Below, in pieces: positions 5,126 to 63,836 of a stretch of DNA of 64,000 nucleotides (the first letter of the stretch is position 1; each line of letters opens with the position of its first letter). Location: contig CAZVWU010000006.1 of assembly GCA_964631205.1 (NCBI GenBank), forward strand, positions 4,955 to 68,954, given 5' to 3'. This DNA is from an uncultured archaeon (GTDB lineage Archaea > Aenigmatarchaeota > Aenigmatarchaeia > QMZP01 > JACQNV01). The notes under the pieces are model-generated. The model was given only the letters and a program-made list of their open reading frames with translations, was not told the DNA's origin and searched no databases. The position numbers and the translations under genes were made by a program.

Positions 5126-5272
5126 GTATATGTTTTTCTTTTGGGTTATAAGGTCGTGAGGCTTTGACTCACGAGATGTGCCGGACTCAGCTGGAAACTG
5201 ATCTGCAGATCAGTTTCGGTCTTTAAATGTGCTGTGGCACACGACTTTTTCTTTAGAAAGAAAAAGGGTATA
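5126..5272 (-). repeat. Module A element (TATACCC-TTTTCTTT/AAAGAAAA-G[insert]CCTTATAA-CCCAAAAGAAA), intergenic copy carrying an insert that contains module C
   Basis: Same termini as 30770..30880 and the D-loop introns of both tRNA-Glu genes. Confidence 0.85.
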
Positions 5273-5392
5273 AAGCTTATAAACCATATTATTCAATCCA
5301 ATATCAGGCTATGATGACAACGCTCCAGAATGAGGCAGATTGCTGTTTGCCCTTGAATTCCGTGATAGCTGCGGAGCCCTATTTCGAGTCAT

Positions 5393-5962
5393 ATGGTGAC
5401 ATCCAAAATACAGGATCTTGGAAATCTTTTAGAAATTGATGAGATATTAATTTCTGCATTATCAAGCAGATGGAATTACAAGAGTCTGGTTACAGAAAAT
5501 GCAGAAACGGGTTTTTTGTGTATCGACCGTCCTCATTTAGAAGACAAAAAGAAAAAGGATATTTTAAAAGAATTGAGTGAAGAAGTTGAGCTAGAAGATT
5601 TGGATGAGGAGGGGAAGGAGAAGCTTGCAACTCTTGGGAATGATAATTATCTTGTACGCGTTAAATATGTTGAAGAGGATTATAAAAGAGGCGACCTCGA
5701 CAGAATAGCTCCTGGAACCTATCTCGAAGTTATCAGGGTGCACCCAATTTATATGGAAGATGGGCTTTTTGGATACACTTATCCTGAAGGCGGGCTTGCA
5801 GTCTATGTGAGGTCAGATTTGAGAGGAGAGGCATTAAGAAGGGTTATAAAACATGAAGTTGCGCATCATGCCATGAGGCTTGGTGAAGAGGCTGCGCGGG
5901 ATTTGACAGGGACGCACATGCACGAATTTTTGCCTATTTTTGAGAGGAGCAGGTATAATTAG
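5393..5962 (+). CDS. Hypothetical protein with HExxH metallopeptidase-like motif
   Basis: GLFGYT...RRVIKHEVAH..GEEAAR. Confidence 0.55.
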   Translation: MVTSKIQDLGNLLEIDEILISALSSRWNYKSLVTENAETGFLCIDRPHLEDKKKKDILKELSEEVELEDLDEEGKEKLATLGNDNYLVRVKYVEEDYKRGDLDRIAPGTYLEVIRVHPIYMEDGLFGYTYPEGGLAVYVRSDLRGEALRRVIKHEVAHHAMRLGEEAARDLTGTHMHEFLPIFERSRYN

Positions 5963-6017
5963 AGGCAGTAAGGTTTTTTGCTGAACTTGCCCTGCCATAT
6001 ATTTGGCGACTCTATAA

Positions 6018-7337
6018 TTAACCAAAAACACTTTTCTCTTTTATTGCTGAGGGGGACCCGCCAGCATGCCAGCTAAGCCTTGGCCTGATTTGGACAGAAA
6101 AGATTCGCTCTGAGTTGTCATCCAGTATAATCGCAGAGCCTTTATTTCTTGGGAGCATGTTGATGTAATCCTGTATATCCTCCATCATGTAAGTCTGCAT
6201 TATTGACCTGAGTGCTTCTAGATCCGATCTGGAAGTCAACCTATGGGAGATAATAAGGTCTGATTGCGCCAAAACATCCTCATGGAGTTTTCCTGGCCTT
6301 TGTGTGATCAATAGGACTGAGATTCCAGGTTCCCGGCCTTCTTTAATTAACGTCAATAATGGGTCTGTGGCTGCTGTGGTTTCTGCGTTTCCAACAAATT
6401 GGTGCGCTTCGTCAATCATTATCCAGACCATTGGAGCTTTTTTCTTTTTTTCGCCTGTCATTGTTTCAAATTCTTCTGATTTTCTTGCTATTAACCGTTC
6501 CATGAAAATTCTTCTGGATAGCAGCCCTACCAGCAGGGAACGCACGCTCCAGCCGCCAGAAACCCTCATATAATGCGAGACGTCTATGACAGAAACTATG
6601 CCTGGCTGAAAAAGGTCAGAAATGGGAGTCCCTTCTTTTTCGAAAATCCCCCACTCCTGTGCAGCTTCAAACCTGTTTATAAGGGCTTCTTTCACAACAG
6701 GCTCTATTCTTTTGTCGGCTTCCAGTATTTTGGTTATATCTGAAAGATCGTATTTGGTTCCATATTTTATCTTGGCTTGCTTGATAGCGCGTTCGATGGC
6801 AATCCCGTGAGAGTCTATTGAGGTGAACCCAAAGGTGACGATCCAGTCGGCGGCAGCCAATTCGCCGCATGCAAGCGTAAGGCTATGGTCGACCTCTACT
6901 CCCGAATCTTTGTATGAATTGGCATAGGCTTTTGGGACAAAGAGTTTTGCAGGCATTCCCATGGGTTCAAGGGGCTTTTTTTCATCAGGTCTTTTCCAGT
7001 CCCTGAGAAGGCTTCTTCCTTTTTCGTTGGGACTTTTCATACTCCAGAAGATTCCCATAGTGTCTATCATCAGGACTGAAAGGTTTTCCCTGATATCTTT
7101 TGGGAGTAGGGCCATCTCTTCGGAAATCACAGCCGCCGAGTAGGATTTTCCTGTCCCTCTTTTGCCGACAATCAAAACAACATGCGGTTTAGTCACATCC
7201 ATTAAAACAGCATTTGTAAGCTTTGATTCCTCCCCCTCGCCAACAATATGCATCCCTATAAAAGCAGTCCCTTTGTCGCCGAACTTTGCAAGGTCATCTT
7301 GGTCTCTTCCAACAACAATGTTTTCTAGAACAGGCAT
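6018..7337 (-). CDS. HerA/FtsK-like P-loop ATPase (DUF87)
   Basis: GKRGTGKS, IDEAH, EGREPG, TQRP motifs. Confidence 0.85.
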   Translation of the reverse strand: MPVLENIVVGRDQDDLAKFGDKGTAFIGMHIVGEGEESKLTNAVLMDVTKPHVVLIVGKRGTGKSYSAAVISEEMALLPKDIRENLSVLMIDTMGIFWSMKSPNEKGRSLLRDWKRPDEKKPLEPMGMPAKLFVPKAYANSYKDSGVEVDHSLTLACGELAAADWIVTFGFTSIDSHGIAIERAIKQAKIKYGTKYDLSDITKILEADKRIEPVVKEALINRFEAAQEWGIFEKEGTPISDLFQPGIVSVIDVSHYMRVSGGWSVRSLLVGLLSRRIFMERLIARKSEEFETMTGEKKKKAPMVWIMIDEAHQFVGNAETTAATDPLLTLIKEGREPGISVLLITQRPGKLHEDVLAQSDLIISHRLTSRSDLEALRSIMQTYMMEDIQDYINMLPRNKGSAIILDDNSERIFSVQIRPRLSWHAGGSPSAIKEKSVFG

Positions 7338-7384
7338 ATGACTTATATATTGTTTACGTCTATAATATAATTAGAGGGATTATT

Positions 7385-7585
7385 ATGACATTGGTGGACG
7401 AAGTAATAAAAAACAAAGAGGAGATTCTCATAAAGGTCCTGCAGTTTTTGGAGGGGAAGGAAGCCACAACAAAGCTCAATCTCAGTGGGATGAAGTTCAC
7501 TCTAGGCAACATGCTTGTAAAGCTCAATGGGCAAGTTGAGGTAACTGTTTTAAAGCTGGAAGAAGGCAAGAAAAAGAAAAAATAG
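7385..7585 (+). CDS. Small hypothetical protein
   Basis: ATG at 7385 after TATA-like sequence; protein-like composition. Confidence 0.6.
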   Translation: MTLVDEVIKNKEEILIKVLQFLEGKEATTKLNLSGMKFTLGNMLVKLNGQVEVTVLKLEEGKKKKK

Positions 7586-7652
7586 ACTTTCTTATTAAAA
7601 CAGGCGGCGGAAGTGAGAATAAGCTTAAAAACCTCCACCTCGTAGATAATCC

Positions 7653-7913
7653 ATGCCTATTCTTGAAGATATCCTCAAAAGCGTGGACGGGAGTCTGGAT
7701 TGTTCAATTCATTTCCACGGAAAGCAGGCCGCGATTATTTCTCTTGAGAATAAGGAGATAGTTTTTGATGTGAAGGACCCCTTTGCCTTTATGGACTTCG
7801 GGCTGATGAAGGAATTTATGAAAAGGCGCGGGGATTCAGGGGCAATGAAAAGGCTGAAAGATGCCGGGTTCAAGGTTAGCCTAAAGTACAAGGGATTTAA
7901 GGTGGATTTGTAG
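7653..7913 (+). CDS. Small hypothetical protein
   Basis: 86-aa ORF co-oriented with neighbours. Confidence 0.6.
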   Translation: MPILEDILKSVDGSLDCSIHFHGKQAAIISLENKEIVFDVKDPFAFMDFGLMKEFMKRRGDSGAMKRLKDAGFKVSLKYKGFKVDL

Positions 7914-7923
7914 TGGGTTGTTT

Positions 7924-11241: not shown

Positions 11242-12003
11242 ATGGTTTACTCTGCAATTGTTTCAGACTGGAACGGAACTTTATTTCAATATCCTGCAGA
11301 CGACGTGCAAAACAAAAAATTGGCTGTTGCTGCTTCAATTAATGATGTCCTGTATTTAAGATTAGGAAGCTTTTATAGGCTTCTCAAAACAAAAAAGAGG
11401 CTTCACCTGATGTTAGAAGAATATCGTGCAGGGAAAAGGCCTTTGCAGGATCTTTATGATGTTTTCAATAGGGAGGTTCTGGCTGGTAGGTCCCCTGAAT
11501 TTGTACATAGGGTTATCGATCAGTATGCGAGAGAGTCTGCAGATAAAGTAGATGGCAGGGTTCTCAGGCCAATTAGAAGTGAGAAATCAAGAGGGAAAAC
11601 TACTGCTATTCTGTCTGTCTCATACGACAGAAGCATACTTAAAATTTTAGAGCGAGCTGGCTTTTCAGACGTCTTCGGACCCGGAGATGTAGTAGCCAAC
11701 ACCCTTAAATTGGATGGCGATGGAAAAGTTGAAGGATTAACCCTCGGTATTTACGGGAAAAAACCTGAAATAATGGAAGCGGAGTTTTTTAGGGGAAGGG
11801 GTCTAAGGCCTGAAACAACAGTTTATCTGGACGATACTGCAGACGGTGAAGGTGTTGCTCAGATGTTGCCGGAAGGGAATTTTATTGTCCCGTTCCTTGC
11901 TTCTGAAACTTCTCCTGACTTTGCGCAGCGGATGGCTTCCAGACACGGGGCTTTTGTTCCTGCAAGCGAAGAGGATCTTGCCAGATATTTAAAATCCAGA
12001 TAA
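11242..12003 (+). CDS. HAD-superfamily hydrolase
   Basis: SDWNGT motif I, LS motif II, K, YLDDTADG motif IV. Confidence 0.7.
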   Translation: MVYSAIVSDWNGTLFQYPADDVQNKKLAVAASINDVLYLRLGSFYRLLKTKKRLHLMLEEYRAGKRPLQDLYDVFNREVLAGRSPEFVHRVIDQYARESADKVDGRVLRPIRSEKSRGKTTAILSVSYDRSILKILERAGFSDVFGPGDVVANTLKLDGDGKVEGLTLGIYGKKPEIMEAEFFRGRGLRPETTVYLDDTADGEGVAQMLPEGNFIVPFLASETSPDFAQRMASRHGAFVPASEEDLARYLKSR

Positions 12004-12121
12004 ATATGGGATTTTTAAAAAGGCTTGTATTTTTTCTCTTCATCGTTGTGGCTGGTTTTAATCCCAGAATTAAACAAATCCATGTTTATTTGTTAGAAGC
12101 AAGGTTTAAGAAATGCGATCC

Positions 12122-14215
12122 TTACACCATTATCTTCAGTTTTTTTGCAGCCAGACCCTGCAAAATCTTTGCGCCTATATCAGAGTTTTTGCGGACACTT
12201 ATCCTGCCTTCTTTTCCTACCATAGGTGATAAGAGGAATTCATCTCCGTAATATATATCAACTTGTTTACCTGTGAGGCTGGGTTCTACGAGCAAATTGA
12301 ACTTTCCTCCTGTTTCTTCGTAAACAAAGCTGACAGGTTTTTTGAAGGTTTTCTCTTTCGGCTCCACGTTTATATGGATTCCTCCCAGATGCCTTTCAAC
12401 AGCTTCTATGTTAGATCCCCCCTTCCCGATAAGAGGCGCTATTGAATCGTTTCTTACTCTTACGATAACTTCATTATCAGAGATTATTTCGACTTCTGGA
12501 TCTTTGTCATATTTCCTTAGCTCATATTTTATAACCTCTTGTGCAAGGGTTTTCACAGCAGAACTTTGCTGTTTTATTTCTCCTATAGGGATGACTACAT
12601 TCTCTTCGCCATAGCTGTAGATTTCGTATTCTGGTTTCTTTGTCTCGAAATCCCTTATCTCGACTACAGGCCTTGCAAGGTCAGCTTCTGTCATACCGTG
12701 AGGAACTTTGACTGTCAATGCGAGTTCGTACACCTGGACTATCTTCCCATCCTTGATGTAAATAACGACATCTATTACATGGGGTATTACGCCAAGCTCA
12801 ATCCTTCCAATAAATCTCTGTATTGCGTTGATGGGGTCTGTTGCATGCATGACTCCAATCATCCCTACTCCAGCCAACCTCATGTCCGAGAAGACGCGGA
12901 AATCTGTTGTTTTCCTAATTTCATCGAAGATTGTGTAATCTGGCCTGACTAACAAAAGTATCTCAGATGTTTTTTCCCAGCTGCCTTCCAAAGGAGCATA
13001 TTGCGTCACTTCTGCCCCAACTTGCAAGTCCCTTGGCTGTTCAAATGTTTTGACTATTTTATTTTTCTTCACAAGCATTTCTGCAACGCTGGCTGCGAAT
13101 GTGGACTTTCCTGAACCAGGGGGACCTGCTATAAGGACTCCTGCTGACTGGTCTGAAAGCATTTCCTCTAGTTTTTTGTGCAGTTTGTATTCTGAAAGGT
13201 CGACTTTTGCAATTGGCCTTACAGCTGTGACTTCCACGCCATCTGAAAATGGAGGCCGTGCAATAGAGATCCTAAACCTGCCTAGCTGGATTATCAAAGA
13301 ACCATAGCTGCTCATCTCGATAAACGCATCTTTTTCAGATCTTGCTTTCAAGGCTATCTGGTCTGTTATTGACCTCATCTCAAGTTCTGTCATCAGCTCT
13401 TCCCGCAATTTTACTAATTTCATTGAGCCTGGCTTCCCTTTTTTAGCAAAAGGGGCTACACCCTCTTTTAGATGGACAGATTGTGTGTCTTCTGTAAAGA
13501 AATCGTCTAGCTTGAGCTTCTGTTCCCTCAAAGGGACTGGAGTGTATTCAACTGAAATCCCTTCAACTTCTGCAATCAAAGCCTGCACATAATCAGAAGT
13601 CATTAAGATTGCTTTTTCCCTCGCAGCTGTATCCCTTATCAAGGCATCAATACGGCCTTTCTTTGCAAGCTGTATCTCCTCCATTGTAGGCCTTCTTCCT
13701 GTGAAAGAGATTGTGATCCCTTTGTCTTTTCCAAGTTCCCTTATCCTTTTTATTTCTTCTAGACCTTCGAAACCAATATCACGGCTCCTGCTTGCCTGAG
13801 CCTGGAGTTCATCAAGGACCATCACAGGTATGACTATTCTTGTATCCTTGAATTTCCCTTCCTTAATAAGCTTGGAAATTTTCCCCTGTATAAGAACAGA
13901 TGTGTCTGGCACAATTGTTTTTTTTGTTTGTTTTAGTTCCAGCCTGTCCTCTGGTTTTCCTGGCTGTTTTGTCTCATTTTTTTCCAGTTTTTTGTCCTCT
14001 GGTTTTTTCTCTTCAGTTTTATTTTCTTTTATTTCTGTTTTTTGTTCCTTTTTTTCTTCCTGTTTTTCGGTTATATTTTTCTTTGGGATCTCAACACTTT
14101 CTTTTTTTAAAAGAAAGGGCTGATTCTCTTCTGGAATTTTTATAGAGGTTTCAGAACCCTCTTTTTCTACAGGTTTTATAGAAGCTGTAGAGCCTTCATT
14201 TTCTATTTTTTTCAT
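12122..14215 (-). CDS. PIN-domain/PilT-like ATPase with KH domain (PINA-type)
   Basis: VPDTSVLI PIN start, GPPGSGKS, DEIR, GMIGVMHA, LIGKGG KH motif; K/E-rich N-terminal extension. Confidence 0.88.
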   Translation of the reverse strand: MKKIENEGSTASIKPVEKEGSETSIKIPEENQPFLLKKESVEIPKKNITEKQEEKKEQKTEIKENKTEEKKPEDKKLEKNETKQPGKPEDRLELKQTKKTIVPDTSVLIQGKISKLIKEGKFKDTRIVIPVMVLDELQAQASRSRDIGFEGLEEIKRIRELGKDKGITISFTGRRPTMEEIQLAKKGRIDALIRDTAAREKAILMTSDYVQALIAEVEGISVEYTPVPLREQKLKLDDFFTEDTQSVHLKEGVAPFAKKGKPGSMKLVKLREELMTELEMRSITDQIALKARSEKDAFIEMSSYGSLIIQLGRFRISIARPPFSDGVEVTAVRPIAKVDLSEYKLHKKLEEMLSDQSAGVLIAGPPGSGKSTFAASVAEMLVKKNKIVKTFEQPRDLQVGAEVTQYAPLEGSWEKTSEILLLVRPDYTIFDEIRKTTDFRVFSDMRLAGVGMIGVMHATDPINAIQRFIGRIELGVIPHVIDVVIYIKDGKIVQVYELALTVKVPHGMTEADLARPVVEIRDFETKKPEYEIYSYGEENVVIPIGEIKQQSSAVKTLAQEVIKYELRKYDKDPEVEIISDNEVIVRVRNDSIAPLIGKGGSNIEAVERHLGGIHINVEPKEKTFKKPVSFVYEETGGKFNLLVEPSLTGKQVDIYYGDEFLLSPMVGKEGRISVRKNSDIGAKILQGLAAKKLKIMV

Positions 14216-14383
14216 ATTAAATTACTCTCTTAATTCATCCGGCGCTCAAAAGCAGCCAGTGAGTTGATTTATTTTAAAATACTAGGTTAAATATCACAGA
14301 ATCAGACTGTTTGTCTGTGTTCCTTATTTGCCTGTATTCATCTAGATATAGTAATAACTAGTATATAAAGGTTGGCCTCATTA

Positions 14384-14396
14384 ATAACAGTGTTAT
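14384..14396 (-). promoter_or_regulatory. Palindromic operator candidate ATAACACTGTTAT (copy 2)
   Basis: 14 bp upstream of TTTATATA box on the minus strand. Confidence 0.6.
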
Positions 14397-14710
14397 TTTC
14401 TCTCTCTTGTTTCCCTCTCAACGCTATCCAGAAATGTATTCCTGCTTTCAGAAGTTGATTGCCTTAATGGGCTATAGAATGGCAAACCCCTCTTTCTGCA
14501 GAATTCCTTAAGCTCAGTATCGCTTGCAATCCCGTCACAATTGCCTTCCTCGTCAGCAATTTTCAAGGCTTTTCTGTAAATCTCTTCCCTTTCAGCCCTA
14601 TGGGCATTGGAATCGTAGCTGTAAAAAGCGCCCAAAAAAGCCAAATAGCCTGCTACCAGCCCTGTTATCACTTTTTCAGGCTGCCTTTCCTGCAATGAAT
14701 AGTTTGCCAT
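14393..14710 (-). CDS. Small membrane-anchored hypothetical protein, EF-hand-like motif
   Basis: N-terminal TM segment; DEEGNCDGIASDTE. Confidence 0.55.
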   Translation of the reverse strand: MANYSLQERQPEKVITGLVAGYLAFLGAFYSYDSNAHRAEREEIYRKALKIADEEGNCDGIASDTELKEFCRKRGLPFYSPLRQSTSESRNTFLDSVERETRERK

Positions 14711-14796
14711 CCATAGTATTGGAACAAGCCTTTATAAAGCTTTATATAGCATTACTACATAGTAACATTATGAGCCTCCAAGTATAACAGGGGATT

Positions 14797-30769: not shown

Positions 30770-30880
30770 GTAAATTCCTTTCTTTTGGGTTATAAGGTCG
30801 TGTCTGGTAGACACGCGACATCTCATCACCCATCAGAATAGAAGATTATGACTTTTCTTTCTCGAAAGAAAAGGGTATAT
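30770..30880 (-). repeat. Module A element, intergenic copy with insert 30798..30851
   Basis: Same termini as 5126..5272 and the tRNA-Glu D-loop introns; abuts ATG of next gene. Confidence 0.85.
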
Positions 30881-50918: not shown

Positions 50919-51204
50919 TGCTCCCAACGGGATTTTCAAATGCTGGATCCACTTCGGTTATGTAAACCTTCTTTTGGGATCTCAAACCTTTTCTTGGAAG
51001 AAAAGGGCTGAATTTGAACCCGTGTCAGGGGATCGAGAATCCCCTATCCTTGCCGGTTCCTATATTTCTTATAATCCTGCAACTTTTCTTTCTTGGGTTA
51101 TAAGGTCAGCATCTCATCAGAGATGATGAGATGTCTCGTGTCTACGAGACACGACTTCTTTCTTTTTTTAAAAGAAAGAAGGGTATATGCTAGACGATGG
51201 GAGC
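50919..51204 (-). tRNA. tRNA-Glu(CTC) with 132-nt D-loop intron (51057..51188) and 80-nt T-loop intron (50933..51012)
   Basis: GCTCCCA/TGGGAGC acceptor, GGGGA-TTCTCGA-TCCCC arm; BHBs TCTA/TAGG and TTCA/TGAA. Confidence 0.88.
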
Positions 51205-55485: not shown

Positions 55486-55589
55486 AACAGGCATAAATGC
55501 TAAAAACACAGATTCATCTTTCGACCTGTTTTAGCAAGCTCTCTTGAAATATTAAGTATATTTAGCTGTCCCCATTTAATAATATAGAT

Positions 55590-55886
55590 ATGAGTAAAAT
55601 AGTGAAGCCTAATATAACCCAGAAGCAGAGGCTAAAAAGGCTGGCAGCCGGCTTTGTTTTTATTATTTTGGTATTCTATTTCTGGCTGGTTTTGGAGGTT
55701 AATAGCCTTTCTTCGCTTTACAGACTAGTTTTAATAATTCCCATATATCTAGCAGCCCTCTCATTCTTAGAATCTTTTTTCAGCTATTGTGTCTTAAAAA
55801 AGAAGACAAGCAAAGTTTCCATGAAAATTCATTTAATTTCTTTGTTGGTTGCTGCAATAATAGCTGTAATAGCAGTTTTTGTTTAA
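55590..55886 (+). CDS. Small membrane protein
   Basis: Three hydrophobic segments. Confidence 0.6.
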   Translation: MSKIVKPNITQKQRLKRLAAGFVFIILVFYFWLVLEVNSLSSLYRLVLIIPIYLAALSFLESFFSYCVLKKKTSKVSMKIHLISLLVAAIIAVIAVFV

Positions 55887-55955
55887 TTCATCAATAACTA
55901 TAAATTTCAATGTCTTCGGATAATCTTTAAAAGGGGGGAGTCTATTATAATCTGT

Positions 55956-56588
55956 ATGGCCCAATGCGAAAACTGCGGTTCCAAGGCTGACAAGAGCTGG
56001 GAGTTCTGCCCTAGCTGTGGAGCTAGCCTAAGGGTAGCAGATGCTGGCGATCTGTTTTCTGAAATTTTTGAGAGGTTTGGACAGGAATTTGCTGAGATGA
56101 ACAAAATGTTTGAAAGGCAGATTGAGGCTGTTGACATAACCCCGATGTTCAGGAAACCAAAAGGGATCCAGCGTGGTGGCGGGTTTATAATAAGCATAGG
56201 TTCTTCCGGGGATAAGCAGCCCCAGGTTTCTGTAAGGGCATTTGGTGATGTGGATGAAAGAAAAATAAAACAACAGGTTTACAATCAACTGGGACAAGTT
56301 GAAGAAAAGCCGTTTGAACAGAAGGCGCCTAAAAAAGTGAAAGCTTATGGAGAAACAGAGGAACCTAAAACAAGGGTTGAGAAGGTTGGAGATAAGGTTG
56401 TTGTTGAAATGGAATTGCCCGGGGTTAAAAAAGACAGTGATATAGAGATAAATGAATTGGAGAGTTCAGTCGAAGTCAAAGCCATTGCAGATAAAAAAGC
56501 TTTTTTCAAAATATTGAAAAAGCCAGGGGATAGAAGAATACTAAGAACTGGATTTAATAAGGGAATTCTAAAACTAGAATTTTCTTAA
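55956..56588 (+). CDS. Zinc-ribbon + Hsp20/alpha-crystallin protein
   Basis: CENCG...FCPSCG; EEP..VVVEMELPGVK...FNKGILKL. Confidence 0.8.
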   Translation: MAQCENCGSKADKSWEFCPSCGASLRVADAGDLFSEIFERFGQEFAEMNKMFERQIEAVDITPMFRKPKGIQRGGGFIISIGSSGDKQPQVSVRAFGDVDERKIKQQVYNQLGQVEEKPFEQKAPKKVKAYGETEEPKTRVEKVGDKVVVEMELPGVKKDSDIEINELESSVEVKAIADKKAFFKILKKPGDRRILRTGFNKGILKLEFS

Positions 56589-56612
56589 GATAGGAAACCG
56601 GAAAATAAAAAG

Positions 56613-56861
56613 CTATTTTTTTGGCTCAGCTGTTTTGCTAAATGCCTTGTTCGCTTTCATCTCATCCATTTCAAGCCAGAGTATAAACAATCCGACAAGA
56701 ATCAAAAAGATTGGTAATGTGCCTGTCAAGACCACAACAAAATTCTGCCACCACTGGATATTCCCAGGCAGCCTGTTCCACCCTAACGCTGAATCTGCAA
56801 ATAGATATAATCCTACCAGAAGGATTACCAAACCAAGCAAAAGCTTTGTTGTGGCTGCCAT
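56613..56861 (-). CDS. Small 2-TM protein
   Basis: Two hydrophobic helices followed by WLEMDEMK. Confidence 0.65.
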   Translation of the reverse strand: MAATTKLLLGLVILLVGLYLFADSALGWNRLPGNIQWWQNFVVVLTGTLPIFLILVGLFILWLEMDEMKANKAFSKTAEPKK

Positions 56862-56926
56862 ATTGATATAAGATTAGACGGTTATATTTATAAGTATTAC
56901 TGCTTTAAATATTCCACCAGTATATA

Positions 56927-57505
56927 ATGGATATGAAACGGTTAGATTATTTTTCCAGCATGAATAGTGATGAGTTCAGGCAAATTCAGAGCCAGAGGCT
57001 CATTCGGTGGAGGTCTGAGGATGTTGTCAAAAGGGTTGATGGCCCGACAAATCCGGCAAGAGCCCACAGATTGGGATACAAGGCAAAGCAGGGCTTTGTT
57101 ATTGTCAGGGCAAGAGTCCCGAAAGGTGGACGGAAGTCACGGAAACCGGCAGGGGGCAGGAAGCCTTCTGCTGCAGGAAGATTTTTTACACCAGCGAAAT
57201 CTAAGCAGTGGATAGCGGAGGAGAGGACCGCAGATAGATTTCCAAATCTTGAAGTATTAAATTCTTATTTTGTGGGAGAGGATGGAGTCTCAAAATGGTT
57301 CGAAGTCATACTTGTCGACAAGAACCATCCTGCAATCCAGAAAAATAAGGAAACCAGGTGGATTGCAGAGAAACAGCATAAAGGCCGTGTTTATAGAGGA
57401 TTGACCGGCGCAGGGAAAAAATCGCGGGGCCTTGCGAGGAGCAGGGGCAAAGGGGCCGAAAAGTTAAGGCCTTCTTTAAGAGCGCACGAGAAATCGGGGA
57501 AATAA
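56927..57505 (+). CDS. rpl15e: 50S ribosomal protein L15e
   Basis: [27 protein letters not shown]. Confidence 0.95.
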
Positions 57506-57545
57506 TTTTTGCTTCTTTTTTATAAACTGGATACAAATCTAATCT

Positions 57546-58784
57546 ATGTTCGATCTCCTAAAGGAAAAGCTGAAAGAGTCTATACAGAAGCTGAGTTCTA
57601 AGGGAAAGGAAACTGAGAAAACTGTAGTTGTTGAAAAAGTTCAGGGAGCGGAGAAAAGGACCAGCATAGACGATCTTCTTAAAAAAATAAAAGAGTCAAC
57701 TGAAGAAATAAAAAAAGAAGTTGAGCATATTTCTGAAGAGCAGCGAGGGGTTGGGGAAGAAGAAAGTGGAGAAGATGTTATTGAGGAACTCACAGAAGAG
57801 GAGCAGGAATCTGTCAAGGAACCTGTTGCTGAGCCTGTCCCAGTTGAGCCGGAAGAAAGGATTGAAGGAGATCTTCACATAAAACCTCAGGGGCCAAAAG
57901 CAGGCTTCAGGCAAAGGTTTTTGAAAAAAATAAAGGTAAAAACGCTTTCTGAACAGGACATAGAGGATTTTTTTGCTGAAATAGAGCCCGGGCTGCTTGA
58001 AGCGAATATTGCGGTTGAAGTTGTTGATTTTATAAAAATTGCGATGAAGAAGGAGCTTTCTGGGAAAGAGGCTAGGAGGATAAGATCGGCGGAAGATATT
58101 GGAAAGGCTTTTGGGGACGCTTTGGTTAAAGCAGTTGACCAAGGAGGTGTTAATATTGAAGATTTGATAAGAGAATCTAAGGGAAAAAACAAGCCTGCTG
58201 TTGTCTTGTTTTTGGGCTTTAATGGATCCGGAAAAACAACAAGCATAGCAAAATTGGCTAATTATCTGAACAATAAAGGGTTCAAGCCTGTGTTAGCTGC
58301 TGGCGACACTTTCCGTGCTGCGGCGATTGACCAGCTGGAAACACATGGCAACAAGATCGGCGTTAAAGTAATCAAGCACCAATATGGGGCTGATTCTGCG
58401 GCTGTAATTTTTGATGCAGTAAAGCATGCTCAGGCAAAAGGGTTGGATATTGTGTTGGCGGACACAGCTGGAAGGACGCACACAAATGTGAATCTGGTCG
58501 ATGAATTGAAAAAGGTTGTCCGTGTGAACAAACCAGACCTGAAGATTTTAGTTATAGACGGGCTGACAGGGAATGATGCAGTTGAGCAGGCGAAGCAGTT
58601 TAATTCAGAAATAGGGGTTGATGCAGTTGTGATAACAAAAGTAGATGTTGATGAGAAAGGGGGAGCAATATTATCTGTTGCTTACACAATCAAAAAACCA
58701 ATTTTGTTTTTGGGTGTGGGTCAGGGATATGAGGATTTCAAAAAATTTGAGCCAAGGGAGTTTGTAAAAACTTTATTGGAATAG
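57546..58784 (+). CDS. ftsY: SRP receptor FtsY
   Basis: Acidic A domain, GFNGSGKTT, DTFRAAA, DTAGR, GQGY. Confidence 0.95.
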   Translation: MFDLLKEKLKESIQKLSSKGKETEKTVVVEKVQGAEKRTSIDDLLKKIKESTEEIKKEVEHISEEQRGVGEEESGEDVIEELTEEEQESVKEPVAEPVPVEPEERIEGDLHIKPQGPKAGFRQRFLKKIKVKTLSEQDIEDFFAEIEPGLLEANIAVEVVDFIKIAMKKELSGKEARRIRSAEDIGKAFGDALVKAVDQGGVNIEDLIRESKGKNKPAVVLFLGFNGSGKTTSIAKLANYLNNKGFKPVLAAGDTFRAAAIDQLETHGNKIGVKVIKHQYGADSAAVIFDAVKHAQAKGLDIVLADTAGRTHTNVNLVDELKKVVRVNKPDLKILVIDGLTGNDAVEQAKQFNSEIGVDAVVITKVDVDEKGGAILSVAYTIKKPILFLGVGQGYEDFKKFEPREFVKTLLE

Positions 58785-58785
58785 T

Positions 58786-59256
58786 ATGAATATATCAAAA
58801 CTTACGCCAAGAGATGTGGATGAGTTCTCAAGACTTGTCACCGATGTAATCCAAAACACACCATATTATTCAGAATGGGGCAGAATAAGTGAATGCAGCG
58901 GGTACAAGTTTGAATCTATAAAAAATAGGATGTTGGATAAAAATTTTCTTTTTCTTGCGGCAAAAATCAATAAAAGGATAGTCGGTTTCAGTGCAGGCCA
59001 TCATGATTTCGGCACTTTCTGGTTAGACTGGATAGGCATAGACAAAAATTTTAGAAAAAGATGTATAGGAACCGGATTGCTGGTTTTTCTGGAAAAGTAT
59101 CTGAAAGGCAAAGGCGTCCATAAGATATGGCTTGATACTATCCAAACCAACAATGAAGCTATCAATTTCTTTAGGAAAGCAAAATTCAAAAGAATCTGTT
59201 CATTGAAAAATCATTGGTACAATCAGGACTTCTATCTTTGGGGGAAATTTCTTTAA
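58786..59256 (+). CDS. GNAT acetyltransferase
   Basis: IGIDKNFRKRCIGTGLL, N.EAINFF.K. Confidence 0.82.
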   Translation: MNISKLTPRDVDEFSRLVTDVIQNTPYYSEWGRISECSGYKFESIKNRMLDKNFLFLAAKINKRIVGFSAGHHDFGTFWLDWIGIDKNFRKRCIGTGLLVFLEKYLKGKGVHKIWLDTIQTNNEAINFFRKAKFKRICSLKNHWYNQDFYLWGKFL

Positions 59257-60074
59257 TCGGCTCCAAAAAAGTATTGCGTTGCTTGCTGTATATTCGCAAC
59301 TTCCCTTACCTCTATCCCGACATCTTTTGAAATGAAAATTTTTTCTCCGACTGTACGGGTTTCGCAGATTTGGAATCCTGCTTCAGAATAGCATGACCTT
59401 TCCGGCCTATAAATCTTTGAGCTGCCCTGTCCTATTGGGACAAGAAACAGGCTGGCACCGACTTCTTTTGCGCCTATTGCTTTTGCAACAACTTCCCCAA
59501 TCGGGCCGATTGTCCCGTCCTCCTCTATAGTTCCTGTAATCATTACGCTGTTGTTTATTGTTTTGTTTTGCAGGCCGGCAATTGTTGCAATTGTGAGCGC
59601 TGCGCCTGCAGAACCGCCTTCAATCACGCTTGCATTTGCTCTCACTGTATAGACTATGTCATATTTCGAGATATCTTTCCCTGTTATATCCTCGGCGACT
59701 TTGGTTGCCTTTCTTATGGAGTTTTGCGTGTCCACCCAAAAGAACAGCTTGTCTATGTTTGTCAATATTTTGCCTGATCCTGGGGAAACCTGCACATCCA
59801 ATGACGTCACGACCCCGCTCCCTTCTTCATCAACAGCAGGCACATAGATTGAAGTAAAAGTTGACTCGGTGCTAACAGGTGCATATTCTTTAATTATTTT
59901 TTGATCTGTTATCTCGTATGCCTTAATAGTAGGTTCTTTCAATCCGCCGACACTCTTAAAGTAGGCATTTTCTATGTTCAGCCCTATAAAGATGCCTAAA
60001 AGGAAAACTATTATTATTGAGCCTACAACAACGGTAAGGCTTACGCCCAACTCTGTATCCTTTTGTTTTGCCAT
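59253..60074 (-). CDS. Membrane-anchored Lon C-terminal (S16) protease domain protein
   Basis: IEGGSAGA, MITGTI..DG.IGPIG.V..K (Ser-Lys dyad). Confidence 0.85.
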   Translation of the reverse strand: MAKQKDTELGVSLTVVVGSIIIVFLLGIFIGLNIENAYFKSVGGLKEPTIKAYEITDQKIIKEYAPVSTESTFTSIYVPAVDEEGSGVVTSLDVQVSPGSGKILTNIDKLFFWVDTQNSIRKATKVAEDITGKDISKYDIVYTVRANASVIEGGSAGAALTIATIAGLQNKTINNSVMITGTIEEDGTIGPIGEVVAKAIGAKEVGASLFLVPIGQGSSKIYRPERSCYSEAGFQICETRTVGEKIFISKDVGIEVREVANIQQATQYFFGAD

Positions 60075-60156
60075 ATCTTAACTTAAACCAGCTGTTTATT
60101 AATTTATGCCATCCCCTCTTGCTAATATTTAAATTGAGATAGTAAATAATACAGTT

Positions 60157-60924
60157 ATGCTCGCGGATAAGAACGACTATTTGTCTGCAGGGATCCACAT
60201 AGGGATGAAAGCGTGCACTGCCTACATGAAGCGATTTGTTTACAAGACAAGGGAGGACGGTCTCTGTGTATTCAACCTTCAGGAAGTGGATGAAAGGATA
60301 GCCAAAGCAATAAGCATGCTTTCGAAATACAATAAAGTTCTGGTCGTCTCCCATAAAGACGCTTCTGCTGAAGCTATAAGGAAATTTGCAGAATTGGCTG
60401 GCGGAAAGGCTGTTTCAACAAGGTTTTCACCAGGGACACTAACTAACCCCTCTTACAGGGAGTTTTATGAGCCTGACATAATCCTTGTAGTTGACCCTTT
60501 AGTTGACAGGCAGGCCATTGAGGAGGCAAAAAAGAAAAGGATTCCTATAGTAAGCCTCTGCGGGACTTCCAGTGAAGCTGTGGATATAGACTTGGTTGTT
60601 CCGATAAATAACAACAGCAAAAAATCTCTGGCATTATTTTTCTGGATACTGGCGAAAGGTGTGATGAAATCAAAAGGGATCATAAAGGAGGATAGCGAGT
60701 TCACGGCCACACTTAAAGACTTCGGCGACATAGGCAAGGAAAAGAGGATCGGCCAACCAGGCCTGGATTTGGACAGCGGACTTGATGTAGATATAGATAT
60801 TGAGATAGAATCTGGTGATAGCAAAAAAGAGACGCCAAGAAAAGGCAGGCCTAAAAAAGCTACAACAGGGAAGAAATCTTCCAAGCAAATAAAGATTGAA
60901 AGCGGTGGAGCAGATGCTAAATAA
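60157..60924 (+). CDS. rps2: 30S ribosomal protein S2
   Basis: YLSAGIHIG, RFSPGTLTNP, PINN..KKSLAL. Confidence 0.95.
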   Translation: MLADKNDYLSAGIHIGMKACTAYMKRFVYKTREDGLCVFNLQEVDERIAKAISMLSKYNKVLVVSHKDASAEAIRKFAELAGGKAVSTRFSPGTLTNPSYREFYEPDIILVVDPLVDRQAIEEAKKKRIPIVSLCGTSSEAVDIDLVVPINNNSKKSLALFFWILAKGVMKSKGIIKEDSEFTATLKDFGDIGKEKRIGQPGLDLDSGLDVDIDIEIESGDSKKETPRKGRPKKATTGKKSSKQIKIESGGADAK

Positions 60925-61375
60925 AAAAAAGATTGCAGCGGACATTCTGAAGTGCGGTGTCAGCAGGGTCAGGATTCTTGATGAAAAGCAGGTAGGGGAA
61001 GCAATAACACGGCAGGATATAAGGAATTCCATAAGAAAAGGCCTTATTGTAAAAATCCAGAAAAAAGGGACATCGAAAGGGTTTTCAAAACAGCTTTACA
61101 GGCAGAAAAGGAAAGGCAGGCGAAGCGGTGTAGGGACAAGGAGAGGGACTTTTAGAGCGCGAAACCCCAAAAAATATCTGTGGATGAAGACTATCAGGCC
61201 GCTCCGAAAGCTGTTAAAAGAACTTCTCAGGAACGGCCAGCTTGAGAAAAAAGACTGGAAGCTGCTCTATTCAATGGCCAAAGGCGGCTCATTCAGAAGC
61301 AGAGGGCACATGCTTACTTACCTAAAAGACCACGACATGCTGAAGAAGAAAGAGGTTAAGAAGGCCAAGAAATAA
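60914..61375 (+). CDS. rpl19e: 50S ribosomal protein L19e
   Basis: IAADILKCGVSRV, AITRQDIR, WM..IR.LR, AKGG.F. Confidence 0.93.
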   Translation: MLNKKKIAADILKCGVSRVRILDEKQVGEAITRQDIRNSIRKGLIVKIQKKGTSKGFSKQLYRQKRKGRRSGVGTRRGTFRARNPKKYLWMKTIRPLRKLLKELLRNGQLEKKDWKLLYSMAKGGSFRSRGHMLTYLKDHDMLKKKEVKKAKK

Positions 61376-61609
61376 TTAAGAATACTCTTTTATTTTCGCT
61401 TCAAGATAGGCCGATGCCTGTGGAGATAATTTTGGGATTAATCTTTTTGCTTCCCTGAGATAAAATTCTCTTATGTTATGCAGCCCAAAGCCACATGGAT
61501 TATCCAGATGGTAGCCTATCCTTGCTGCTATCTCAAGGTCATCCATATCTTCAAGGGTTTTCCCGAGCAGATCCCTGATACCCTGTTCATTAGCGCCTGT
61601 TTTGTCCAT
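61376..61609 (-). CDS. Small hypothetical protein inserted between rpl19e and rpl18
   Basis: 77-aa ORF with its own TATA-like box. Confidence 0.6.
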   Translation of the reverse strand: MDKTGANEQGIRDLLGKTLEDMDDLEIAARIGYHLDNPCGFGLHNIREFYLREAKRLIPKLSPQASAYLEAKIKEYS

Positions 61610-61691
61610 AATCTTACAATACTCCGGAATTTATAAGCTTGATTCCATTCAAATTTATAGTATTTAAGTCATGTATTCAATATTCTGAGAT

Positions 61692-62273
61692 ATGCCATTG
61701 ATTATTGTCCCGCACAGGAGAAGAAGGGAAGGGAAGACTAACTACAGGAAAAGGCTGAAAACAGTAAAATCCAAAAAGCTCAGGTTTGTTGTAAGGAAAT
61801 CTTCAAGGCAAATCTATTGCCAGCTTATTGAATATCAGACAAAAGGCGACAAGACCCTTTTATCTTCGAATTCCCTTGAACTTGCAAAATTTGGCTGGAA
61901 CGCTGACGGCGGGAATTTGCCTGCGGCTTATCTGACCGGATTTCTCTGCGGCCTGAAGGCAAAGAAAAATAAAATTGAATCCGCAATCATGGATACAGGA
62001 TTGTATACTTCTGTCCATGGGTCAAGGCTTTACGCCACCTTAAAGGGGGCTGTAGACGCCGGTTTGCAGATCCCGCATTCAGAGGAGGCCTTCCCTTCAA
62101 CAGAAAGGATTTCAGGCAGCCACATTGCAAATTATGCAGCAAAGCTGAAGAAAGAGAAGCCTACTGTGTACAAAAAACAATTTTCAAAGTACCTTTCTTC
62201 GAAAGTAAATCCTGAAGACTTGACGAAGCTTTTCGAGGCTACAAAGGCGAAGATTCTTGCAGAAGGAACATAA
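61692..62273 (+). CDS. rpl18: 50S ribosomal protein L18
   Basis: RRRREGKTNYRKRL, NLPAAYLTG, KGAVDAGL.IPH. Confidence 0.95.
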   Translation: MPLIIVPHRRRREGKTNYRKRLKTVKSKKLRFVVRKSSRQIYCQLIEYQTKGDKTLLSSNSLELAKFGWNADGGNLPAAYLTGFLCGLKAKKNKIESAIMDTGLYTSVHGSRLYATLKGAVDAGLQIPHSEEAFPSTERISGSHIANYAAKLKKEKPTVYKKQFSKYLSSKVNPEDLTKLFEATKAKILAEGT

Positions 62274-62310
62274 AGTTAGTTTTTTAATTCTCTACATAAC
62301 TATATTCTAT

Positions 62311-62547
62311 GCCGAGGTGGCAGAGTGGCTAATGCACTAGTCTATCCTTTCTTTTCCAAAAAGAAAGGATACAGTACCCAAAGAAAAGGATTTACAAATT
62401 GGGCGTGAATCTCGAAAAGCACTTCTTTCGGTTCAAACGGACAAAAGACCTGCACTAGAAAACTAGCATCCGAAAGGATATACAGGTTCGAAAGAGTTGG
62501 AAGTTGATTTGCAAATCAACTTCAGTCTGAAACTCCTGTCCTCGGCG
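62311..62547 (+). tRNA. tRNA-Ser(CGA) with three introns: ~30/31 (62341..62409), 37/38 (62417..62460), 59/60 (62493..62533)
   Basis: GCCGAGG/CCTCGGC, spliced arm CTAGT-CTCGAAA-ACTAG, long V arm, G discriminator; first intron boundary uncertain by 1-3 nt. Confidence 0.85.
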
Positions 62548-62548
62548 C

Positions 62549-62619
62549 GGGCCCATAGTCTATCGGCAGGACGCGACCCTCACACGGTTGAGAGGGGAGT
62601 TCAATTCTCTCTGGGCCCA
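62549..62619 (+). tRNA. tRNA-Val(CAC), no intron
   Basis: GGGCCCA/TGGGCCC, CGACC-CTCACAC-GGTTG. Confidence 0.9.
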
Positions 62620-62621
62620 TT

Positions 62622-63069
62622 ATGAAAGGGGAAAATCTTATCAAGGGGGCAGATTTTACAGGGGTCGCTATAGTCTTCTTCTGCCACCATGGAAAGGGGA
62701 ATTTTATAATGGCAAAAAGGTCGCAGAATGCCAGAGATGAGCAAGGAAAATGGGACATTGGTGGTGGGGGATTAGATTTTGGGATTTCAGTTGAAGAAAC
62801 TTTAAAAAAGGAAATAAAAGAAGAATACTAGACAGATGTTTTGTCTTTTGAGTTTTTGGGATTCAGGGATGTGCACAGAGAACATGACGGATAAAAAACA
62901 CATTGGATTGCACTTGATTCCAAAGTGCTGATAGACCCTTCGAAAGTCAAAATAGGCGAGCCCCATAAATTTGATGAAATAAAGTGGTTTACTTTAGATA
63001 AACTGCCGGAAAACTTGCATTCACAGCTTCCTGTGTTTTTTGGAAAAATATAAAGAGGAGTTTATGTGA
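62622..63069 (+). pseudogene. NUDIX hydrolase pseudogene
   Basis: NUDIX box GGG.....SVEETLKKEIKEE; frame continues past TAG (62829) and TAA (62892); probable +1 slip in T-run near 63036..63041. Confidence 0.8.
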
Positions 63070-63099
63070 TTTAAGTATTAAGTTGGAAATAATGTCAGT

Positions 63100-63171
63100 G
63101 GGCTGGTGGTCTAGTGGCATGATGTCGCGTTGACGTCGCGAAGATTGCAGGTTCGATTCCTGCCCGGCCCA
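63100..63171 (+). tRNA. tRNA-Val(GAC), no intron
   Basis: GGGCTGG/CCGGCCC, TCGCG-TTGACGT-CGCGA. Confidence 0.93.
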
Positions 63172-63224
63172 TCTAGCTCCCTGTTTCTTAAAGGTTTTAA
63201 TATAAATAAGGTAAATATACGAAT

Positions 63225-63435
63225 GCTCCCATCGTCTAGCATATACCCCTTTCTTTTCCAAAAAGAAAGGCCTTATAACCCGAAAAAAAGGAGTTACAAA
63301 TACAGGCGGGTAGTATATAGGAACCGGTCAAGGATCCCGGACTTTCGATAATCATTTTAATTGGAAGTGATGAGTAGATTATATCTACAATGAAAAAGCA
63401 ATCCGGTAACGCGGGTTCAAATCCCGCTGGGAGCA
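63225..63435 (+). tRNA. tRNA-Glu(TTC) with D-loop intron (63241..63323) and 37/38 intron (63348..63400)
   Basis: GCTCCCA/TGGGAGC, CCGGA-CTTTCG|A-TCCGG; BHBs TCTA/TAGG and CTTT/AAAG. Confidence 0.9.
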
Positions 63436-63436
63436 C

Positions 63437-63557
63437 GCGGGGGTACCCAAGTGGTCAAAGGGGCTAGGCTTAGGTATCTAAGAGCCATGCTCAGAAATTA
63501 GCTATTAAGAAACCTAGTGCTTTAGTAGCTTCGCAGGTTCGAATCCTGCCTCCCGCA
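63437..63557 (+). tRNA. tRNA-Leu(TAG) with 37-nt 37/38 intron (63475..63511)
   Basis: CTAGG-CTTAGG|A-CCTAG; BHB CTTA/TAAG. Confidence 0.92.
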
Positions 63558-63601
63558 TCCCACTTTTTTTATTTATATAATACTAATAATAGATGTACGA
63601 T

Positions 63602-63836
63602 GGCCGCTATGGTGTAATGGTAGCATACGGGCCAGACGATTAGAAAAAATCTAGCTGTCCCCGAATGTGGAGCCTTTGGTCCGAGTTCGAATGCGCCCCT
63701 TTTCTTCAGAGGGATGACATAGATCCTAAACAATTGGATAAGATCTATGTCCGCCTGAATCAGAAAAGGCCCGCGGGTTCAAAAGAAAACATTTACTGAA
63801 CCACGGTAAGGTGATATGGGAATCTCGGTAGCGGCC
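63602..63836 (+). tRNA. tRNA-His(GTG), encoded G-1, introns at 32/33 (63634..63665) and 59/60 (63692..63822)
   Basis: GGCCGCTA/TAGCGGCC acceptor, loop C|TGTGGA, CCGAG/CTCGG T stem; anticodon stem weak. Confidence 0.82.

Follow-up and report, generated by a model that had tools for sequence, protein, structure and literature searches.

The stretch of DNA analyzed here (the window; 64 000 nucleotides, corresponding to G000:C6:4955-68954, where G000 is the window's own genome) contains several tRNA genes that are broken by introns at unusual places, together with copies of a short hairpin element, which we call Module A, lying in these introns, between protein-coding genes and inside an open reading frame (ORF). 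At the gathering threshold, Rfam yielded five tRNA matches in the window and nothing else, and ARAGORN called 3 tRNAs, being unable to handle the multi-intron tRNA genes present here; further tRNA genes with introns were recognized by eye. G000 comprises 897 kb in 17 contigs with ~41% G+C (94% complete, 3.5% contaminated), of which approximately 89% is coding according to crude longest-ORF gene calls. Because the named public records nearest to its inositol-1-phosphate synthase are Candidatus Aenigmatarchaeota metagenome-assembled genomes (73-81% identity), we regard the host as a DPANN archaeon of the Aenigmatarchaeota group. For comparison, we used 40 other genomes of the same order, belonging to families f1 (4 besides G000), f5 (11), f2 (12), f3 (1), f4 (1) and f6 (11). 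G001 is of the same genus (g1) as G000, G003 and G004 are of a sister genus, and f1 consists of the five high-copy genomes G000-G004. L-numbered labels (L041, L188 and the like) denote contigs or loci of G000 and its relatives.

A preliminary description of this sequence had named seven copies of the element, five in tRNA introns and two free-standing, and all seven are present in the window; an eighth lies within an ORF (Table 1). Unsplit copies were scored with a covariance model (R1) built from 25 copies, and copies split by an insert were read directly from the sequence. Both free-standing copies occupy the minus strand; in each, an insert of 50-95 nt separates the hairpin from the spacer, and each stands beside a start codon, as had been noted (minus-strand ATG at 5124, plus-strand ATG at 30879). 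The neighbors of the copy at 30770-30880, myo-inositol-1-phosphate synthase (29564-30757, +) and a CDP-alcohol phosphatidyltransferase (30879-31505, +), belong to one pathway. ORF 12122-14215, which harbors the eighth copy, encodes a PIN-domain/ATPase protein (Pfam); the copy lies on its sense strand, is open in frame and reads ..NQPFLLKKESVEIPKKNI.. there. The hairpin pattern CTTTYYTT-N0-8-AARRAAAG matched 8 times (6 loci) in the window, compared with a mean of 0.08 in 100 dinucleotide-preserving shuffles, none of which reached 8, and the short tail pattern alone was not significant (3 matches versus 1.12 expected).

Table 1. Module A copies, third-module sites and direct repeats flanking Module A copies. 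Positions without a contig name are those of the window; C1, C2 and so on are contigs of G000.
Feature	Position	Strand	Details
Module A forming the entire D-loop intron of tRNA-Glu(TTC)	63241..63323	+	gene 63225-63435; core 63241-63298 plus 25-nt tail; covariance model 73.5 bits
Module A at the 5' end of an intron in tRNA 62311-62547 (putative; Ser, position 30/31 in the preliminary description)	62340..62396	+	covariance model 63.9 bits
Module A at the 5' end of the T-loop intron (about 51011-50933) of tRNA-Glu(CTC)	50959..51013	-	gene 51204-50919; covariance model 56.4 bits
Split Module A in the D-loop intron (51188-51057) of tRNA-Glu(CTC)	about 51081-51188	-	roughly 50-nt insert between purine arm and spacer; read from sequence
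Split Module A at the 5' end of a T-loop intron (about 63693-63823) in the tRNA at about 63602-63837 (putative His)	63693..63796	+	insert inside hairpin loop
Eighth Module A, inside ORF 12122-14215 (-)	14068..14125	-	covariance model 60.1 bits
Split Module A between divergent genes	5126..5272	-	tail end 11 nt before the ATG (5124) of ORF 3844-5124 (-)
Split Module A in the 121-nt gap between two pathway genes	30770..30880	-	Y TTTTCTTTC, tail AAAAGAAAG
Third module	5150-5245		
Third module	30797-30852		
Third module	51105-51165		
Third module	C2:14690-14775		
Third module	C1:8995-9080		
Third module	C4:95965-96040		
Flanking direct repeat	C4:55467-55525		13 nt perfect; termini TTCAG/CTGAA complementary
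Flanking direct repeat	C5:49687		40 nt perfect
Flanking direct repeat	C5:47171		38 nt imperfect
Flanking direct repeats elsewhere			9 nt and 12 nt

We parsed the layout of the element from 41 of 64 G000 loci and from 71 copies in loci of relatives. The core of ~55-65 nt begins, from 5' to 3', with a foot of 3-5 nt (ATA, CAG, TAG, CTA and others), followed by CCC and a pyrimidine arm (Y). A loop, which measures 0-6 nt in unsplit copies, joins Y to a purine arm (R1) that pairs with it. Beyond R1 lies a spacer with CCC or CC/TCC at its end, then a second purine tract, R2, and finally C-N-N-TTAC/ATAC with a variable tail. The spacer had been described as keeping a fixed length of eight nucleotides, but its length in fact varies from 7 to 14 nt across 93 unique parsed copies. 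The number of C's opening the loop tracks the G's that end R2 (CCC with GGG, CC with GG, none with C). Single-stranded DNA (ssDNA) folds predicted with ViennaRNA contained the Y:R1 hairpin, and the hairpin only, in 6/6 copies (z-scores -1.4 to -4.3); for 3 of these 6, none of 200 shuffles folded as well.

The spacers fall into discrete classes that covary with the 3 nt located 5' of the hairpin. Among the 93 unique copies, foot ATA accompanied spacer CCTTATAA in 15, foot CAG accompanied TGTTGAGAT or TTTGAGAT in 11, foot TAG accompanied TCTACCGTA in 6 and foot TAA accompanied CGTTAAC in 4. The changes in foot and spacer are complementary (ATA with ..TAT.., ATG with ..CAT.., CAG with ..TTG/CTG.., TGA with ..TCA.. 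and GCA with TGC), and we therefore concluded that the foot pairs with the start of the spacer and is part of the element.

A second and stricter regularity links the three tracts. R2 is complementary to Y in parallel orientation and hence the mirror image of R1; it does not repeat R1 directly, nor does it equal the reverse complement of Y. Because a MAFFT alignment (A1) and a covariance-model alignment (A2) shift the register of Y between copies, we counted this correspondence without alignment in 88 unique copies, anchoring on the CCC before each tract. In the parallel register, 732 of 802 positions were complementary. Where Y has C, R2 has G in 157/190 cases, compared with 58/195 and 60/181 when the register was shifted by one position and with at most 75/190 in any antiparallel register. 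The Y tracts formed 25 haplotypes, 17 of which had at least one perfect copy. For 35 G000 copies, the longest parallel run exceeded the antiparallel run in 22, equaled it in 11 (symmetric tracts) and was shorter in 2. The summed parallel score was 313, versus 252.8 +/- 5.9 when R2 was shuffled among copies, and 0/5000 shuffles reached 313; because the copies are kin by descent, these shuffle figures overstate independence and are not probabilities.

Examples of Y/R2 pairs in G000 are TTTCTTTT/AAAGAAAA, TTTTCTT/AAAAGAA, TTCTTTCTTT/AAGAAAGAAA, TCTTTCTTTT/AGAAAGAAAA and TTTCTCTTTT/AAAGAGAAAA, and those in relatives include TCTTCTTTT/AGAAGAAAA, TCTTTTTCC/AGAAAAAGG and TTCTCTTT/AAGAGAAA. Within the window, the Glu-CTC D-loop copy obeys the mirror rule (Y TTCTTTCTTTT, tail AAGAAAGAAAA), the copy at 63693..63796 has spacer CCCGCGGG and tail AAAAGAAAACATTTAC, and the rule is degenerate in the copy at 5126..5272 (Y T5CT3CT versus tail A4GA5). 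The orthologous Glu-CTC D-loop intron of G001 (L188) has Y TCTTCTTTC and tail AGAAGAAAG; thus, the Y tracts of the two orthologs differ (TTCTTTCTTTT versus TCTTCTTTC), and R2 differs to match.

Module A has the strand layout of an intrastrand triplex motif (class II/III), with a third tract on the same strand mirroring the purine complement of the pyrimidine tract. Since mirror repeats are not made by polymerase-based copying, we read the rule as the outcome of selection on a three-stranded structure. Two possibilities had been raised for the pyrimidine tract. The first, that Y has two alternative Watson-Crick partners, is not supported, since the antiparallel Y:R2 pairing does not covary. The second, a triplex, is supported by the covariation of Y, R1 and R2 described above, and the parallel complementarity of R2 to Y would be its signature.

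The element belongs to a sizable family. Three rounds of nhmmer on G000 produced 104 strand hits at 64 loci, and covariance model R1 gave 46 matches in G000 at E<=0.01. The four other f1 genomes contained 43, 20, 51 (G003) and 26 matches; matches also occurred in 5/11 f5 genomes, 3/12 f2 genomes (one or two each) and the single f3 genome (1/1), and the same model found none in the f4 genome (0/1) or in f6 (0/11). Where sister families had matches, some of them had fewer than f1. Module A is probably limited to a single clade, of order rank, among Aenigmatarchaeota-like DPANN archaea. In the scanned loci, the gathering threshold of Rfam was exceeded by tRNA and 5S models only, and Rfam 15 contained nothing overlapping Module A at E<=1 over 50500-64000 (five copies) or at E<=0.01 in five further loci, in line with the preliminary description, which did not recognize it as a described family. 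The pattern CCCTTTYYTTT-N1-7-AAARRAAAG-N6-13-CCCRAARRAAA matched 0 IMG/VR contigs, a search so insensitive that the same pattern recovers only 11/46 G000 copies, and a literature search at the level of abstracts and selected passages found no description of such an element.

We read the contexts of the 46 G000 matches by eye from printed flanks and crude ORF calls. Seventeen of them are located in tRNA genes, most often in the T-loop (8) or the D-loop (6); two further copies sit in or close to the anticodon stem, and one occupies the canonical position 37/38, where it is confirmed by an Rfam tRNA model that spans the tRNA at C4:63862-64046 with a 116-nt gap. All 17 are on the tRNA strand and start 0-5 nt past the 5' exon. 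A T-arm motif was found within 250 nt on the same strand for 14/46 copies and on the opposite strand for 0/46. The preliminary description had proposed that the elements use old introns as safe sites; the position of the 17 copies at the 5' exon and the Glu-TTC intron, which is wholly insertion, speak against this. About 25/46 copies lie outside RNA genes, in both orientations. Two copies follow a 5S rRNA model match (87 nt, 44.6 bits, gathering 38) that stops at the element, two lie within ORFs, in sense and in frame, and the remainder are intergenic and packed against gene ends. For at least six intergenic copies, an opposite-strand start codon lies 2-5 nt from the foot (CAT-ATA|CCC); several others are 10-50 nt before a same-strand ATG, and several directly follow a stop codon.

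Two side observations concern the RNA gene contexts. At L174 235-321 and 327-500 (G000 C8:17934-18200), 5S-3'-like sequence resumes about 100 nt past the 5S match and is followed by a second Module A, so that this region may be an interrupted 5S rRNA gene. Behind TTAC, the T-loop introns at L002 320-360, L012 325-400 and window 50935-50965 hold a degenerate second copy of the T-arm (GGTTCAAT, GGTTAAAT), which precedes TTTGAAAA, a sequence that pairs with the real T-loop; the degenerate copy could be a relic of a target duplication.

Comparison of filled with empty loci, which had been proposed as a check on mobility, revealed empty sites, and the copies are not all fixed. In tRNA-Glu(TTC) of G000, the 83-nt insertion (63241-63323) stands between GTCTAGC and CCGGTCAAGG and thus interrupts the mature tRNA sequence, whereas in G001 and G004 the sequence is continuous (GTCTAGC|CCGGTCAAGG). 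G001 shares with G000 a homologous canonical intron in this gene. In G003 and G011 the D-loop pattern was not matched, and its single G009 hit, with 2 mismatches, was followed by no recognizable tRNA. Gain of the intron in the G000 lineage is the simpler reading compared with two losses, and the proposal that the element explains tRNA intron gain agrees with the absence of this intron from G001 and G004. Relative to the core of the intron (63246-63292), 1/47 positions differ in the intergenic copy C2:96367-96413 and 2/47 in the copy C1:148022-148069; the Glu-CTC D-loop copy is less similar. As had been claimed, tRNA introns and intergenic DNA therefore have one element family in common.

Empty sites were also observed at protein-coding loci. 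The copy at 30770-30880 has no counterpart in G001, in which the gap is 29 nt versus 121 nt in G000, and seven more distant Aenigmatarchaeota-type contigs (L094-L100) have the same gap at about 2-60 nt without Module A. A metallophosphoesterase gene of G000 (C1:150914-151753) contains a 63-nt, 21-codon in-frame Module A (C1:151248-151306) between conserved motifs; this copy is absent from the 3 orthologs found (G003, G004 and G011; no ortholog match in G001 or G002), and the empty site in G004 reads GAA AAT|GTA. The copy at 14068-14125 has no counterpart in the PIN/ATPase ortholog of G001, where the N-terminal region is too variable to map the exact site. Among 63 copies in loci of relatives scoring >=20 bits, 10, all from G003, have both flanks side by side in G000; 9 of these 10 syntenic sites lack Module A in G000, and one is filled (L041, G000 C2:14775). 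We infer the direction of each gain or loss from these comparisons. The 46 copies and the empty alleles in same-genus and sister-genus genomes accord with the earlier proposal of a non-autonomous mobile element.

The same loci show other length differences. In L091 and L092 (2888-3010; 4134-4260; one labeled Desulfobacteraceae), ~100 nt are inserted just after the inositol-1-phosphate synthase gene and are followed by a second copy of roughly the last 30 nt of that gene. The metallophosphoesterase of G003 (L178 about 2050-2105; C1:388376-388429) has its own 54-nt in-frame insertion at another site (..STFLGKNKTLSKRGQKPK..), which is not recognizably Module A. When four DNA contig sets were mapped on 12001-32000, breaks or loose ends appeared at 14086/14123 and a 'skip' from 30797 to 30852; we set these aside as allele evidence, reading them as cross-mapping of other genomic copies.

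G000 has two tRNA_int_endo (EndA) genes (PF01974 at C4:3456-3728, 100 bits, and at C8:64-312, 73 bits). The two genes would fit an endonuclease that cuts relaxed motifs, such as those described in other archaea (PMC5829648). In the minimum free energy (MFE) fold of the Glu-CTC T-loop intron, the T-loop pairs with the 3' end of the intron, leaving 3 nt bulged at the 3' junction; the 5' junction has no bulge and is directly adjoined by the Module A hairpin. The fold of the Glu-CTC D-loop intron contains no clear bulge-helix-bulge (BHB) motif. ARAGORN also reported a tRNA at window 51939-52023 (-) with a four-base anticodon (cgca) and no assigned type; the Rfam tRNA score there is 54.8 bits, and a short intron or an unusual loop probably accounts for the oddity. 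Rfam did not call the tRNA at about 63602-63837.

With moderate confidence, we interpret Module A as a small non-autonomous mobile DNA element whose putative triplex fold would be under selection and whose landings in tRNA genes would become introns. The element strand would fold into an intrastrand triplex of class II, in which R2 binds the Y:R1 hairpin by reverse Hoogsteen pairing, and the complementary strand would adopt the class III, T.A-T/C+.G-C form; the three-tract rule would be kept by selection because of this single-strand triple helix, which may also have a role in mobility. The fold could be recognized by a putative mobilizing activity or, alternatively, could stall replication and provoke copy-choice insertion. 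If a copy landed in a tRNA gene, in sense and beside a sequence capable of forming a relaxed BHB, the host endonuclease would be expected to remove it, giving a new intron. A copy landing in an ORF would survive only if in frame and free of stops, and one landing elsewhere would survive flush against start or stop codons.

Several points weigh against this interpretation. According to Holder et al. 2015 (PMC4666352), RNA does not form triplexes of the purine motif, and those of the pyrimidine motif favor acid pH; the sense transcript of a tRNA intron therefore presumably cannot fold in this way, and the constraint would act on ssDNA or on the other strand. The same source gives a search rule of 1-6 nt for the loops of triplex motifs, and the second loop (the spacer) of Module A is 7-14 nt in 93/93 copies; pairing of foot and spacer may also compete with the third strand. 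The kinship of the copies, mentioned above, bears on the same question. The MFE folds give only a relaxed, partial BHB, genes were called crudely as longest ORFs, and tRNA contexts were identified by eye. Flanking direct repeats (9-40 nt) exceeded the 95th percentile of mismatched pairs in only 5/35 copies, an inconsistent signature. Finally, no mobilizing enzyme came to light: PF01797 (Y1 transposase) and PF00078 (reverse transcriptase) had no match in G000 (94% complete).

The insertion signature itself is mixed. The metallophosphoesterase and Glu-TTC insertions, which have conserved flanks, show a 0-1-nt duplication, and we rejected target duplication as a general signature because it is confined to 5/35 copies and two cleanly mapped insertions lack it. 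In several cases the repeat consists of the first 20-66 nt of the downstream gene, so that an intact gene start is restored after the element. Elements at gene starts (C2:14680-14912, C5:47171-47330, C5:49687-49830 and window 5273-5300) are bracketed by duplicates of the gene start, of which the upstream copy is partly decayed (for example, ATGACTAAACGAATTGCA.. before the element and ATGTCTAAACGAATTGCA.. after it); likewise, a weak copy of roughly the first 20 nt of ORF 3844-5124 stands 5' of the element at 5126..5272 (read by eye). The 5' flanks of copies often end in AAT or CAT (read by eye). Between the direct copies at C5:47171 and C5:49687 we recognized no transposase; Pfam assigned the five ORFs there to thioredoxin/NHL, a weak ABC2 and three without a match. 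We could not reconcile the mixture of sites with and without repeats with a single known transposition chemistry, and copy-choice at a stalled fork is our guess.

A bolder version of the mobile-element interpretation is that Module A is a self-sufficient 'intron seed', in which the triplex would drive its own insertion and host splicing would create introns in tRNAs, possibly also in 5S rRNA and mRNAs. We regard this version as tentative and would not favor it at present; if true, it would represent a direct, still-active arrival route for archaeal tRNA introns.

It is also conceivable, but unlikely, that Module A is a structured RNA module within introns and that introns are copied between tRNA genes only, the intergenic copies being dead relics. 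The hairpin would then sit at the 5' splice site, with the A-rich tail in an H-type pseudoknot and the C's of the loop pairing with the G's after R2. Such a module would account for the sense orientation of all 17 tRNA copies at 0-5 nt past the 5' exon, for the tracking of loop C's by the G's after R2 and for the MFE fold with the hairpin directly at the 5' junction, and copying of introns between tRNA genes has been proposed for Thermoproteales (as cited in section 2.5 of bioRxiv 10.64898/2026.10.13.758758). However, it would leave unexplained the many copies outside RNA genes in both orientations, among them those whose foot abuts an opposite-strand ATG, and the fact that the closest relative of the new intron is an intergenic copy. 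Moreover, minor-groove A contacts need no G opposite each C-G pair, the pseudoknot would probably be sterically strained, as Y leads to the loop C's without a linker, and in the three-tract count intergenic copies look as mirror-conserved as intronic ones.

The many copies that stand flush with start codons (opposite-strand CAT-ATA|CCC, same-strand TTAC-N-ATG) or after stops could instead reflect a host regulatory signal at gene boundaries, such as a promoter (B recognition element (BRE)-TATA), a ribosome-binding purine tract, a terminator or an mRNA-stabilizing 5' structure, but we consider this very improbable. In some copies the CCTTATAA spacer lies about 24-30 nt before an ATG (read by eye). 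Yet the same element occurs inside tRNA genes and two ORFs, orthologous genes of close relatives lack it, the spacer classes TGTTGAGAT and CCCGAACG are not TATA-like, and the mirror rule is left unexplained; in a genome that is approximately 89% coding, any tolerated insertion must fall at a gene boundary. On these grounds, a promoter reading of the CCTTATAA spacer was considered and set aside.

Lower still in probability, in our judgment, is a miniature element derived from IS200/IS605 (PATE/REP-like, that is, akin to palindrome-associated transposable elements and repetitive extragenic palindromes), with a Y1 HUH transposase recognizing the hairpin and cutting at TTAC, an affinity that had been suggested in the preliminary description. 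The subterminal hairpin and the TTAC/ATAC after the tail resemble such elements, and the two well-defined insertions lack a target duplication, as is typical of the IS200/IS605 family. However, Module A has a single hairpin rather than one per end, some copies have 9-40-nt flanking repeats, and searches for the enzyme mostly gave no match: PF01797 matched 6/41 genomes but, among the five f1 genomes, only G001 (one match), with no match in G000, G002, G003 (51 copies, 96% complete, 7 contigs), G004 or, outside f1, G011, and PF07282 was found in 0/5 f1 genomes. The single f1 TnpA locus, that of G001, carries other end hairpins, and no Module A was detected within 4.5 kb of the gene (nhmmer, E<=10), so that the expected HUH/TnpA gene flanked by the motif did not appear. 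Finally, chance likeness among low-complexity purine and pyrimidine tracts, to which the non-significant tail pattern might point, can be dismissed in view of the 8 hairpin matches versus 0.08 expected, the 46 genome matches, covariance scores up to 73 bits, the conserved spacer and TTAC and the presence of the same family in many genomes.

Other repeat modules occur near Module A. A second family with the core CTTCTTT..AAAGACCTGCACTAGAAA is found in other tRNA introns and between genes (window 51800-51890, -, and 62440-62470, +), and its copy at G000 C5:48390-48500 is flanked by a perfect ~31-nt direct repeat of local sequence. A third module, consisting of two small hairpins (CGTG..CACGAGA(C/T)ATCTC..GAGATG), is inserted between purine arm and spacer in several Module A copies (Table 1), and a similar sequence follows the inositol-1-phosphate synthase gene in L088. 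A fourth (..GATCCTAAACAATTGGATAAGATC..; window 63710-63755) lies inside the Module A hairpin loop of the T-loop intron at 63693-63823 and also occurs in the Glu-CTC D-loop copy of G001 (L188 1545-1590).

Prokaryotic miniature inverted-repeat transposable elements (MITEs) and REP/PATE elements are short, non-coding, structured and multi-copy and show presence/absence polymorphism, and Module A resembles them in all these respects. Unlike them, it lacks clear terminal inverted repeats and a target duplication of fixed length, we found no partner transposase for it, and it is under a three-strand constraint; only C4:55467-55525 combines complementary termini with a target duplication, of 13 nt. 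In long transcripts, helices of the ENE (element for nuclear expression)/MALAT1 type grip the A-rich 3' end within a stem-loop. On the complementary strand, the tracts of Module A follow the same U-rich, U-rich, A-rich order (C/G-interrupted) and could give U.A-U and C+.G-C triples, whereas tRNA genes carry the other strand, and the complementary strand is known here from DNA alone. Transposition of tRNA introns in Thermoproteales was reportedly described by Sugahara (2008) and Fujishima (2010), as cited in bioRxiv 10.64898/2026.10.13.758758 and PMC3293823. The likeness consists in related introns in different tRNAs, at non-canonical positions and gained over short evolutionary distances; by contrast, Module A also has an extragenic pool between genes, in ORFs and beside 5S rRNA, the newly gained intron is closest to an intergenic copy, and the three tracts follow a triplex-type rule.

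The BoxC/TM_ECO (class II Y-R-R) repeats form triplexes in vitro and mark unstable loci of E. coli (Holder et al. 2015, PMC4666352). They are G/C-rich, with the form CCCTCNCCC-N3-6-GGGNGAGGG-N3-GGGNGAGGG and a 3-nt second loop, and the parts of PMC4666352 used here report no association of TM_ECO with mobile elements, introns or RNA genes. Module A resembles these repeats in having pyrimidine, purine and purine tracts on one strand (class II), with class III on the complementary strand, and in being multi-copy, interspersed, mostly intergenic and linked to rearranged loci. Unlike these bacterial repeats, Module A is A/T-rich and archaeal, has a second loop of 7-14 nt, which pairs with a foot on the 5' side, occurs in tRNA genes, in ORFs and beside 5S rRNA, and shows filled and empty alleles. 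Module A is best described as a mobile interspersed repeat with a triplex motif that would turn into an intron on landing in a tRNA gene; it resembles bacterial triplex repeats, Thermoproteales introns and MITEs/PATEs while belonging cleanly to none of them.

These findings bear on the arrival of tRNA introns in archaea. An intron that is missing in a same-genus relative and whose core is identical at 46/47 positions to an intergenic repeat links intron gain to a traceable mobile element. Module A also represents a rare case in which three-way compensatory change in comparative sequence argues for a selected triple helix in an archaeon.

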